A stretch of 63,909 nucleotides of DNA from an uncultured bacterium. GTDB lineage: Bacteria > Bdellovibrionota_C > UBA2361 > CALJRW01. The stretch is from positions 1-63,909 of the forward strand of contig CALJRW010000057.1 in the NCBI GenBank assembly GCA_937976335.1, in the 5' to 3' direction. The notes beneath the pieces are model-generated. The model did no database searches, was not told the DNA's origin, and worked only from the letters and a program-made list of their open reading frames with translations. Of the stretch, positions 25,991 through 35,090 are shown in pieces. The position numbers and the translations under genes are program-made. Position 1 is the stretch's first letter, and every line of letters starts with the position of its first letter.

Positions 25991-26866
25991 ATGTTTACGA
26001 TCATCCGAGAAGCCTTATTCTTTGCTAAAGATAAATTAAGGAATATTTCAACTAGTCCAGCTTTGGATGCAGAAGTTTTACTTGAAAATGTAGCTAAAAA
26101 AAATAAAGAATTTTTTTATACTAATCCAGATTCAAAACTTTCAGAAAGTGAAAGGGAGTTATATCTTAGTTTTATATCCAGAAGAGAAAAAGGAGAGCCA
26201 GTTGCATATATAACTGGAGAAAAAGAGTTTTGGGGTTTAGCTATAAAGGTGAATCCATCTGTACTTATTCCGAGGCCTGAAACCGAACATATCGTTGAGG
26301 AAGTATCGAAGTATGTTGAACTTTTAGTAAGAGATTCAAAAAAAACTTTAAAGATTCTTGATTTAGGTACTGGGTCTGGATGTATATCAGCGGCAGTTTG
26401 TTTTGAACTGTTAAAAAAAGATATTGATTTTCAAATTTTAGCAACAGATCGATCAGAAGCTGCTCTTTTAGTAGCGAAAAAAAATTTTAAAAAATTTGGA
26501 TACAATGAGAAAATCTCAACATTGCAAAGCGATTGGTTTGAAAACTTAGAAAACTACAAAAGCTATTTTGATATCATAGTAACAAATCCCCCATACGTCC
26601 CGCATATTTGGAAAAAAAAAGCTCAAAAAGATTTAAGTTATGAGCCAGAACTTGCACTTTATTCTGAAGACTCAGGATTCAAAGATGTTAAATTAATACT
26701 TAAAGATATATCAAATTATATGTCTCCTGATAGTTTATTTTTGTGTGAGATTGGAGATGAGCAGAGTGAATTATTAAAAGTATATGTTAATAATTTTGGA
26801 TATAAAAAAGTAGAATTTATAAAAGATTTAGCTGGGGTAGAGAGAGTCTTAAGTGTTAGAAATTAA
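25991..26866 (+). CDS. prmC: Release factor glutamine methyltransferase
   Basis: VLIPRPETE, LDLGTGSG, NPPY; adjacent to prfA. Confidence 0.96.
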   Translation: MFTIIREALFFAKDKLRNISTSPALDAEVLLENVAKKNKEFFYTNPDSKLSESERELYLSFISRREKGEPVAYITGEKEFWGLAIKVNPSVLIPRPETEHIVEEVSKYVELLVRDSKKTLKILDLGTGSGCISAAVCFELLKKDIDFQILATDRSEAALLVAKKNFKKFGYNEKISTLQSDWFENLENYKSYFDIIVTNPPYVPHIWKKKAQKDLSYEPELALYSEDSGFKDVKLILKDISNYMSPDSLFLCEIGDEQSELLKVYVNNFGYKKVEFIKDLAGVERVLSVRN

Positions 26867-26882
26867 TTTTTTCTTAACTTAA

Positions 26883-26914
26883 TTGTATTGGCCTGTTTTA
26901 ACAGGCCAATACAA
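26883..26914. terminator. 15-bp inverted repeat between convergent genes, probable bidirectional terminator
   Basis: TTGTATTGGCCTGTT-tt-AACAGGCCAATACAA. Confidence 0.75.
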
Positions 26915-26937
26915 ACAAGAATAAGTAATAGTTATTT

Positions 26938-27168
26938 CTAACTAACTCTCAAATTCCTAATGACTGCCATCATGGTATCAAAAATGGCTTTAACTATATT
27001 TGTAAGTGCCTGAAAAGCAGCTTGCTTTTGTTTAAGTTTTATATCAGCAGCTTGAATCTTCCCAGGATCTCCTGATTTTGCTGCACTTAGCATCTCGCTT
27101 TGTGCTCCAGATAATTCTTGGCCAAGACTACTGGCGGCGTTCATTAAACTATTGTTATCAATTCTCAT
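26938..27168 (-). CDS. Type III secretion needle subunit-like protein (SctF/PrgI/YscF-like helical hairpin)
   Basis: GDP turn and C-terminal NIVKAIFD...AVIRNLR align without gaps to the PrgI C-terminus as I recall it; GGAG RBS. Confidence 0.65.
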   Translation of the reverse strand: MRIDNNSLMNAASSLGQELSGAQSEMLSAAKSGDPGKIQAADIKLKQKQAAFQALTNIVKAIFDTMMAVIRNLRVS

Positions 27169-27345
27169 AATTTTTTCTCCATTAGGGGTTTGCTGTGAAA
27201 AATAATTTTTGTCAAAAAAATCTATTTTTCACAGACAAGGTTGGAAACAATTTAGCTAAAAAAAGTTTTGGGCATTTGTAAAAAATAGAGATATGTTTTT
27301 CCCATTTGTTATTTTTTATACTCATATGTAACCGTTCTAATTAAA

Positions 27346-27372
27346 TAATCGGCGATTTTCTTTGAAAGTTTC
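27346..27372 (-). promoter_or_regulatory. Sigma28 (FliA)-like promoter upstream of the needle-like gene
   Basis: Minus strand GAAACTTT-N11-GCCGATTA versus consensus TAAAGTTT-N11-GCCGATAA. Confidence 0.5.
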
Positions 27373-27538
27373 TAGAGCTGTACATATTTTTTTAAAAGGT
27401 ATAAGATTCAGATAGTTATCAAGCAAAACTTTGGATGGAAGACTACTACAAAAGCTAATATCTTATTTTAGCTTACTTTATTCCTATAAGTTTTAGTGAT
27501 GAGGCATATATTATAGTCTCGTTTTGGAAAAATTTTTT

Positions 27539-28777
27539 ATGAGAAGAGTAGTAATAACTGGGATTGGGATGCTTTCTCCCCTAGGAAAAAATTTAGAAAC
27601 TTCTTGGTCTGGAGCTTTGTCAGGCAAATCAGGAATAGGCGTCATTTCTCAATTTGATGCATCTCTATTCGCTTCACAAATTGCTGGAGAAGTTAGTGAT
27701 TTTGATGTTGCAGATTATATGTCTCCAAAGGAAGCTAGGAAAATGGGACGCTTTATTCAGCTAGCAGTTGTTGCAGCAGAGCAAGCTTGGGCAGATTCAG
27801 GTTTAAAAGAAGATTCATTTGATGCAACACGTGCGGGATCTATTATGGGTGTTGGTATAGGTGGTTTAGATACTCTTGAACATTATTATGGTGCTTACCT
27901 TGAAAGTGGTCCAAGAAAAATTTCACCTTTTCTCATACCTGCAATGATTTCTAATTTAGCTCCCGGTCATATTGGTATTAAATATGGTCTTAAGGGTGTA
28001 AACTTTGCAATAACAAGTGCTTGTACTTCTTCGACTCATGCAATTGGTGAATCTTATCGTATGATTGCCAATGGTGTACAAGATCTTATTTTTACTGGAG
28101 GCTCAGAGAGCGCAGTGACGCCTAGTTCAATTGGTGGTTTCTCTTCGATGAAAGCATTATCCACTAGAAATGAAGCTCCTGAAAAAGGTTCTCGTCCTTT
28201 TGACAAGGATAGAGATGGTTTTGTTTTAAGTGAAGGAGGGGTGGTTTTAGTGCTTGAGTCTCTTGAATCTGCAGAAAAAAGAAACGCTAAAATTTATGCA
28301 GAAGTTAAAGGTTATGGTTTTTCTTGCGATGCTGGACATATTACAGCCCCTTCGTCTGATGGTGCTGGAGCAATGAGTTGTATGGAGTTGGCTCTAGAAA
28401 ATGCAAATTTAAAGCGAGAAGATATTCAGTATGTAAATGCGCACGGAACATCTACTCCTTTAGGTGACGTAGCAGAAACAGTTGCCATAAAGAATGTGTA
28501 TGGAGATTGGGCAAAATCTGGGCTTTTAGTGAGCTCTACGAAATCAATGACAGGTCATTTACTTGGCGCCGCTGGTGCAATTGAAGCTGGTTTTTGTGCA
28601 ATGGCCATAAAAGACGGGGTGGTTCCTCCTACCATTAACCTCGATAATCCAAGTGAAGAATGTGATCTTGATTATGTAGCAAACAAAGCTAGAAAAGTTG
28701 AATTAACAAATGTGATGTCAAATTCCTTTGGTTTTGGTGGTACTAACGCATCTGTAATATTAAGCAAGGTAGAATAA
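27539..28777 (+). CDS. fabF: 3-oxoacyl-ACP synthase II
   Basis: MRRVVITG, SACTSS (catalytic Cys), NAHGTST, KSMTGHLLGA, SNSFGFGGTN. Confidence 0.97.
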   Translation: MRRVVITGIGMLSPLGKNLETSWSGALSGKSGIGVISQFDASLFASQIAGEVSDFDVADYMSPKEARKMGRFIQLAVVAAEQAWADSGLKEDSFDATRAGSIMGVGIGGLDTLEHYYGAYLESGPRKISPFLIPAMISNLAPGHIGIKYGLKGVNFAITSACTSSTHAIGESYRMIANGVQDLIFTGGSESAVTPSSIGGFSSMKALSTRNEAPEKGSRPFDKDRDGFVLSEGGVVLVLESLESAEKRNAKIYAEVKGYGFSCDAGHITAPSSDGAGAMSCMELALENANLKREDIQYVNAHGTSTPLGDVAETVAIKNVYGDWAKSGLLVSSTKSMTGHLLGAAGAIEAGFCAMAIKDGVVPPTINLDNPSEECDLDYVANKARKVELTNVMSNSFGFGGTNASVILSKVE

Positions 28778-34951: not shown

Positions 34952-35090
34952 AAAGTATTTCTATATTGTTTTCCTTCTGGGAGACTTAGGGTAATTTTCA
35001 ATTCACTTCAGTATATATTTGAGCATACTTATTCATCGTCAAAATTAAGTTTTTTAGAAACTTTTTTAAAAGTTTTTCGATTAATTGTAT

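Follow-up and report, generated by a model that had tools for sequence, protein, structure and literature searches.

The 63,909-nt stretch of DNA analysed here (hereafter the window) is contig CALJRW010000057.1 of assembly GCA_937976335.1, from an uncultured bacterium of the Bdellovibrionota_C (GTDB lineage UBA2361; CALJRW01). We find that a small gene on its minus strand probably encodes a divergent SctF-like needle subunit of 76 amino acids, an orphan under sigma-28-type control that would belong to a type III secretion machine without a secretin. We put the probability of this reading at roughly 0.7; we infer the function throughout, and export, polymerisation, the transcription start and the acting sigma factor are all predicted from sequence. 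In the mechanism that we propose, the protein would be secreted by the type III export gate as a helix-turn-helix subunit, would polymerise through its C-terminal helix into an axial filament, and would assemble on the product of a paralogous gene, P0017, acting as an SctI-like inner rod or adaptor. The machine itself would be a non-flagellar type III system without its own secretin, with its genes scattered over several loci, in a Bdellovibrionota lineage that lacks flagella. The needle-like gene, the P0017-sctV genes and the sctL-sctN genes would be transcribed from one type of promoter, GAAACTTT-N11-G(C/T)CGAT(T/A)A, most likely read by a FliA-family sigma factor that was retained despite the loss of flagella.

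The similarity of the protein itself to known needle subunits is low, but extends over almost its entire length. Residues 6-72 align to positions 6-70 of the 71 in the Pfam needle profile T3SS_needle_F (PF09392), with an E-value of 0.031 and a score of 14.9 bits against a cut-off of 29.4, and the NCBIfam needle model PRK15326 is matched at E = 0.027, with 15.2 bits against a cut-off of 96. A sequence search of the PDB returned PrgI chains as the six best of seven matches (best E-value 0.12), in alignments that reach the last residue of PrgI. The first-pass annotation, made from the DNA letters alone, had claimed 14 identities in 43 gap-free positions with the PrgI C-terminus, and we count exactly this number on the HMMER alignment of residues 28-74 with PrgI residues 37-83. 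Queried with the single protein, a word-indexed homology search recovered nothing beyond that protein, and the gene went undetected at genome-wide E-values when the whole genome was scanned with PF09392. The one weak match of that scan, on contig C79, was disregarded (E = 0.455, two internal stops), and a Pseudomonas DUF1090 protein, the sole locus from a related-locus search of the genome contigs, was dropped as a false positive.

The proposal of a needle-like filament subunit, also made in the first-pass annotation, draws its support from homologues above the family cut-off, from a structural model, from protein language-model neighbours and from a paralogue beside sctV. When 1.84 billion representatives were scanned exhaustively with phmmer, nine relatives emerged, 84-143 amino acids long, two of which exceed the PF09392 cut-off of 29.4 (P0004 with 33.7 bits and P0010 with 30.3 bits), and a third scores 19.2. 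These relatives and orthologues from related genomes were combined into an alignment of 34 members (A2). PF09392 is the family most commonly matched by the members, with 7 of the 34 at E ≤0.05; three members match the flagellar rod C-terminal family, and all other families are matched by at most two each. The first match of the A2 profile in the PDB is the needle fragment of a chaperone complex (7y6c_F, E = 0.0015), and full-length YscF (2p58_B) is matched at E = 0.016 over residues 17-84 of its 86.

The predicted structure is also consistent with a needle subunit. The AlphaFold2 model (predicted local distance difference test score 86.2) consists of a helix at residues 5-32, a turn at G33-D34-P35 and a second helix at residues 35-75, and both this hairpin and the length of 76 residues agree with a needle family of 70-90 amino acids. 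PrgI is the top Foldseek match, and needle chains of Salmonella and Shigella recur within the top 20. In a feature search of the ESM Atlas, 24 of the 30 nearest clusters belong to the set that carries PF09392, with top scores of 0.93 and 196-200 features in common. The most conserved columns of the family are I70 and R71, which lie in the C-terminal helix that ends the protein; the C-terminal helix of needle subunits is the polymerisation interface. The turn is S-G-D-P-G in this protein and S-G-D-Q-G in the family consensus, with long turn insertions in some members, and the classical needle turn is P-x-x-P, of the type P-(S/D)-(D/N)-P. An SctF-like fold is thus predicted and an SctF profile match found, the match being weak for the protein itself and above the cut-off for two homologues. 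We interpret the protein as part of a family that is a distant sister inside the needle superfamily, rather than as an ordinary needle protein.

The paralogue provides a connection to the type III apparatus. Run against all 8,673 open reading frames (ORFs) of at least 40 aa in the genome, the needle-family profile found only the needle-like gene and P0017 (E = 1.2e-4), and the reverse search of these ORFs from P0017 found the needle-like gene at E = 7e-6. P0017 is a 104-aa ORF on contig C64; immediately downstream of it lies a 619-aa SctV/FHIPEP gene, and after that gene comes a TPR lipoprotein-like one. The two proteins have similar C-terminal ends, ...DTRMAPVRNIRVS in P0017 and ...DTMMAVIRNLRVS in the needle-like protein, with ...MxxIRNxRV common to both, and hhalign comparison of an alignment of eight P0017 orthologues with the needle-family alignment gave a probability of 96.4% (E = 1e-9) over the C-terminal 43 columns. 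The N-terminal part of P0017 is long and non-helical, and its orthologues had no match in Pfam or the PDB. The order P0017-sctV-TPR is found in 7 of the 14 loci fetched from relatives, while the remaining 7 have no sctV within ∼4 kb; the taxa of P0017-like Atlas clusters agree with the Bdellovibrionota assignment. Because its relation to the needle-like protein mirrors the known relation between needle and inner rod, P0017 most likely has an SctI-like role, as inner rod or adaptor.

The product of the gene that follows sctV on C64 (L006:10226-10762, minus strand) is a TPR protein of 178 aa whose N-terminus resembles that of a lipoprotein, and the gene stands after sctV in seven relatives. In NCBIfam the protein is most similar to PilW and Tgl, which act in pilus assembly. 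Both are secretin helpers, and the protein could hint at a borrowed outer-membrane channel.

The genome (2.83 Mb in 170 contigs, 32.6% G+C, 91% complete, 2.6% contamination) holds, as judged from its sequence, two divergent non-flagellar type III core sets and one SctL-SctN pair. Contig C60 carries two FHA/YscD-type genes, sctJ, a FliJ-like gene, sctQ, sctR, sctS, a 204-aa gene in the position of sctT, a short sctU and an LcrH/SycD-like TPR gene. Contig C28 carries a weak FliK-like gene, sctR, sctS, sctT, the N-domain of sctU, an 871-aa histidine kinase and a separate gene for the SctU C-domain. On C50, a second and weaker FliA-like sigma factor adjoins a second sctJ, C119 has sctL (FliH family) and the sole SctN-type ATPase of the genome, and the two SctV (FHIPEP) genes are on C64 and C14. 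Thus, from the set of genes that the first-pass annotation had proposed to look for, sctR, sctS, an sctT-like gene, sctU, sctV, sctJ, sctN and fliA are present, as are sctL, sctQ and SctD-like genes, so that the genome has an export gate and an ATPase. The exception is sctC, which was not found in this assembly: there are only two secretins, and their highest scores are for GspD (479.5 bits) and PilQ (337.2 bits). A translocator-type client is hinted at by the LcrH/SycD-like TPR chaperone, although its 42.2 bits fall short of its cut-off, and no needle chaperones were recognised. Complex prediction that paired the needle-like protein with P0019, the cytoplasmic LcrH-like TPR protein, yielded no clear result (score 0.02, mark 0.32).

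Two features of these loci stand apart. SctU/FlhB on C28 (L014:8477-12128) is split into a 258-aa N-terminal membrane domain and a 109-aa C-terminal domain, with the 871-aa kinase, of PAS-GAF type, encoded between them; the second SctU, on C60, is a membrane domain only. On C14 (L005:6044-16748), the 703-aa SctV/FHIPEP paralogue lies within a Tad-like operon, TadZ-CpaB-CpaF-TadB-TadC-SctV-776-aa kinase-like protein, with PP2C, FHA and Ser/Thr kinase genes ahead of it and a TadE-like gene after it. This Tad-SctV gene order is kept in all 6 relatives compared, which come from six families (L081-L086).

Flagellin, rod and hook domains were not found in the 91%-complete genome, and we considered whether the two core sets might be remnants of a flagellum. 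All 41 genomes of the order have FHIPEP genes; 34 have a high-scoring FlhA class beside two lower-scoring classes, and 37 have flagellins. The four genomes without flagellin (G000, G001, G002 and G021) are also without the FlhA class, as are three flagellated, less complete assemblies (G019, G025 and G036). We rejected the remnant reading, since relatives that have flagella possess a true FlhA and, in addition to it, both of the non-flagellar FHIPEP classes. Throughout the order, then, the non-flagellar sets occur together with flagella, and in this family they outlast the loss of the flagellum.

Association with a type III machine does not by itself make the protein a filament. It might be a type III-associated helical hairpin of another kind, either an inner rod or adaptor itself, or an early secreted substrate or regulator that reports the state of the machine, with P0017 or some other, unrecognised protein forming the filament. 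The paralogues share the C-terminal helix only, so that on this ground roles are not assignable from sequence; no secretin was found through which an external needle could pass; and in flagellar biology sigma-28-type control is typical of late exported substrates, regulators included. Nevertheless, the length of 76 residues and the full-length alignment to the needle profile and YscF suit SctF better than SctI, and P0017, with its 104 residues, its long non-helical N-terminal part and its position beside sctV, is better suited to be the rod or adaptor. We consider a non-filament role unlikely and retain the needle subunit as the preferred reading. Contact with prey or host, raised in the first-pass annotation, would be a speculative function for it.

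The promoter region also connects the needle-like gene to the apparatus genes. The motif reported upstream in the first-pass annotation, GAAACTTT-N11-GCCGATTA, is present, and its -10 element fits a GCCGATAA-like sigma-28 site with the -35 element at fixed spacing; the E. coli sigma-28 consensus was used for the motif comparison. The pattern GAAACTTT-N10-12-GYCGATWA has 16 exact and 20 one-mismatch sites in the genome, compared to none of either in the reversed genome, while sites with two mismatches are noise (54 in the genome versus 53 in the reversed genome). From a reading of the printed flanks, 19 of these 36 sites are in three repeat families and 17 are unique. Exact sites precede the needle-like gene, the P0017-sctV operon and the sctL-sctN operon, and the reading as a sigma-28-like promoter gains weight because the latter two share it. 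Sites with 2-3 mismatches lie ahead of the C28 cluster and the C50 sigma-sctJ pair and are not significant alone. A site with no more than three mismatches lies within 450 nt upstream of the gene in 12 of the 20 needle-gene loci examined in the order, where ∼1 would be expected from the genome-wide density.

A candidate reader of this promoter is encoded on C39 (1954-2730), a FliA-family sigma factor with 249.1 bits against a cut-off of 189.6. We regard the flagellin-like regulation of the needle-like gene that the first-pass annotation put forward, here tied to the apparatus operons, as plausible. A FlgM-like ORF is found at C151:1532-1648 (26.9 bits against a cut-off of 25), so that this genome keeps both a FliA-family sigma factor and a FlgM-like ORF without flagellin or rod genes. 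The 76-aa protein might itself be a FlgM-like anti-sigma-28 factor, made from a sigma-28 promoter and holding FliA until exported. It is small and helical, its promoter is sigma-28-like and FliA is kept in the absence of flagella, but the protein has no match to FlgM (PF04316) even at E ≤10, the separate C151 ORF is above the FlgM cut-off, and the confident two-helix hairpin is unlike FlgM, which is largely disordered. We judge this explanation very improbable.

Other copies of the motif lie outside the type III operons. One with a single mismatch is 15 nt before a 484-aa TadG-like (PF13400) gene on C64 (L006:2458-3954, minus strand), and because of this copy the putative regulon joins type III and Tad-type genes. 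In the window, at 35057 on the plus strand, the one-mismatch motif GAAACTTT-N11-TTCGATTA stands immediately before an 81-aa ORF. The repeat-borne sites belong to ∼19 copies, in three sub-families, of a ∼170-nt repeat that carries the promoter-like motif (contigs C7, C13, C23, C25, C62, C72, C102, C168 and others; L048-L060). The spacer of the motif is conserved, as is a stretch downstream of it whose end is near ATGTTGNTGGCA...GTTAG; beyond this the copies diverge, and many of them are located at the ends of contigs. Downstream of 13 repeat-borne promoter copies, neither Rfam nor ARAGORN gave a match; the repeats could be small RNA genes, ends of mobile elements or cassette leaders.

The needle-like family is conserved well beyond this genome. 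The first profile detects it in 31 of the order's 41 genomes at E ≤0.01, and the A2 profile does so in 85 of 124 genomes of a phylum sample at E ≤0.001, most of which belong to the same order. This distribution, together with the enrichment of the promoter motif, places the ORF beyond chance. The gene order prfA-prmC-gene-fabF is kept in part or in full in 6 of 19 loci of relatives (L023, L025, L026, L030, L031 and L034), and the neighbours in other loci are cysS, an EPSP-synthase-like gene, mreB, OGG and further housekeeping genes. No recognisable type III gene is within ∼1.5 kb of the needle-like gene in any of the 20 order loci and the apparatus is spread over several contigs, in agreement with the proposal that the gene is dispersed from its apparatus genes. 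In one relative (L021, G031:C197), an 80-aa ORF and a gene for a 341-aa SLT lytic transglycosylase come after the needle-like gene on its strand; enzymes of this kind are known from type III clusters.

A number of observations weigh against the needle reading. The protein itself is below every curated cut-off, and 27 of the 34 A2 members have no PF09392 match at E ≤0.05. When profiles were run against the PDB, coiled coils and designed helical proteins that are unrelated to needles appeared at similar or better E-values; Foldseek gave no match at E ≤0.001, with unrelated helical hairpins such as CnrX scoring like PrgI; and the two-helix hairpin is a common fold. The assembly is fragmented, incomplete and slightly contaminated, all of the type III apparatus proteins are below NCBIfam equivalog cut-offs, an SctC-type secretin is missing from what was assembled, no tip or translocon protein family was recognised in the scanned type III clusters, and none of the 20 order loci offers a recognisable type III neighbour. 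The similarity to needles could therefore be a convergent helical composition in an unrelated, lineage-specific coiled-coil protein, all of whose direct matches are sub-threshold and for which generic coiled coils score similarly. Two homologues are nevertheless above the Pfam cut-off, the Atlas neighbours agree on one family, the sole paralogue is in the sctV operon, and the promoter is common to type III operons. Convergence is thus in our judgement quite improbable, and an SctF-like subunit remains the reading that we favour.

The features at the locus are given in Table 1. The ORF starts with ATG, and no other ORF of at least 40 aa in the ORF list of the window overlaps it; the protein sequence is the one quoted in the first-pass annotation, and the ribosome-binding site it noted is in place. 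A convergent gene (25991-26866, plus strand) is on the 3′ side and a divergent gene (27524-28777, plus strand) on the 5′ side. The needle-like gene is thus monocistronic by arrangement, since it is the sole gene on its strand between these neighbours, which are a release-factor methyltransferase-like (prmC) and a ketoacyl-ACP synthase-like (fabF) gene, as had been described. Their names come from reading the translations, from tblastn synteny and from a PrmC-type domain match on the orthologous neighbour in L031. The inverted repeat between the convergent 3′ ends is likely a two-way transcript end; lacking a T run, it was not reported as a terminator by a simple scan.

Table 1. Features of the needle-like gene and its surroundings (positions in the window)
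Feature	Position	Strand	Basis
Inverted repeat, 20-nt arms, between the convergent 3′ ends of the needle-like gene and the 25991-26866 gene	26878..26919	.	Inverted-repeat scan
Putative SctF-like (needle-type) subunit gene, 76 aa (stop codon included in positions)	26938..27168	-	ORF, weak needle matches, homologues above PF09392 cut-off, model, order-wide conservation, Atlas neighbours
Predicted 5′ leader, ∼170 nt	27169..27339	-	Start inferred from promoter position
GGAG ribosome-binding site, 8 nt before ATG	27177..27180	-	Read from sequence
Leader hairpin, 18-nt arms (27193-27210 and 27217-27234), 6-nt gap, outer 12 bp perfect	27193..27234	-	Inverted-repeat scan, minimum-energy fold
-10-like element GCCGATTA, sigma-28 type, 11 nt after the -35-like element	27346..27353	-	Read from sequence, motif scans
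-35-like element GAAACTTT	27365..27372	-	Read from sequence, motif scans

The leader described in the first-pass annotation has the stated length if transcription starts, as the promoter position suggests, near 27339, and the 12-bp hairpin reported within it corresponds to the perfect outer part of an inverted repeat whose 18-nt arms are 89% complementary. The hairpin is part of the minimum-energy fold, and the leader folds somewhat better than shuffled sequences (z = -2.15, with 7 of 200 shuffles folding equally well or better). An upstream ORF of 37 codons, read by eye (27325-27212, minus strand), would lie in the leader and end inside the hairpin. The hairpin arm occurs at no other such locus of the genome. 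The hairpin was not found in the sister genus (G001 and G002), where the leader is short and the promoter motif more diverged, and the hairpin leader is for this reason taken as a local, genus-specific feature. A reading of the TGTGA...TCACA of the hairpin as a CRP site was rejected on account of its wrong spacing.

Compared to the SctF needles PrgI, MxiH and YscF (PF09392), the protein is similar in its size, its helix-turn-helix hairpin, its D-P turn, the C-terminal N-x-V-K...D...I-x-N-x-R helix that runs to the protein end, and a rod-like paralogue with the same C-terminal helix. It differs in that it scores below the family cut-off and the family turn consensus is SGDQG rather than P-x-x-P; in addition, the gene is isolated amid housekeeping genes, no SctC was detected for the host system and no needle chaperones were recognised. 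The chlamydial type III system resembles that of this genome in that the apparatus genes are in several loci and a sigma-28 factor is kept without flagella, but there the needle gene cdsF lies beside its chaperone genes in a type III locus and a secretin is present.

The Myxococcus xanthus 'needleless' type III secretion system (T3SS*) has no secretin, no needle and no translocon and acts together with the Tad-like Kil pilus, according to the sections consulted of the two reports (PMC12075869, PMC12428579). By lifestyle, T3SS* is the nearest of the studied systems, and the system considered here resembles T3SS* as presented in those sections in being non-flagellar, found in a predator lineage, and without secretin or recognisable translocon; a tie to Tad is a further likeness, as the SctV paralogue in the TadZ-CpaB-CpaF-TadB-TadC operon recalls the Kil/T3SS* pairing. 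However, T3SS* is described there without a needle gene and in one large cluster, whereas this lineage has SctF-like and SctI-like genes and the genes are scattered. The portions used of Abby and Rocha 2012 (PMC3459982) propose that the first non-flagellar systems lacked a secretin and had a structure based on SctF, either periplasmic or extracellular, and that SctF was lost from the Myxococcus systems. In its gene content, the system considered here agrees with that secretin-less, SctF-bearing ancestral state, which is itself a reconstruction. In Bdellovibrio bacteriovorus, according to the parts consulted of PMC3627812, the FliA-type motif TTAAG-N16-CCGATA drives 92 of 140 mapped attack-phase promoters. 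That regulon, as set out there, is similar in its use of FliA-type promoters far beyond flagellar genes, in the -10 element CCGAT(A/T) and in spacing; it differs in its -35 element, TTAAG there and GAAACTTT here, and in that no flagellar filament genes were found here. Our full-text literature searches, with the supplementary tables of PMC3459982 and PMC3627812 outside their scope, turned up no account of a needle gene or of a non-flagellar type III system from Bdellovibrionota.

What is new here is most likely a very divergent, stand-alone needle-like family of a known kind, the SctF needle superfamily. A more far-reaching idea, which we find possible but doubtful, is that the order keeps a secretin-less type III machine with an SctF/SctI axial structure, the flagellum-injectisome intermediate of Abby and Rocha, which would work with a Tad/Kil-like pilus under a sigma-28-type 'attack' programme. 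Little is understood of type III systems in bacteria that are neither pathogens nor symbionts, and Myxococcus T3SS*, the one studied in a bacterial predator, has been described as needleless, with its mode of delivery open. In this lineage, related to Myxococcus by lifestyle, a needle-like and a rod-like gene escape curated thresholds and lie outside the clusters. The common promoter delimits a small candidate regulon, and the findings bear on the origin of the injectisome from the flagellum. For annotation, the lesson is that an sctF missing from a type III cluster does not prove that a needle is missing from the genome. If the more far-reaching idea is true, 'needleless' type III systems of predators may have orphan needle genes that were missed by cluster-based and threshold-based searches.

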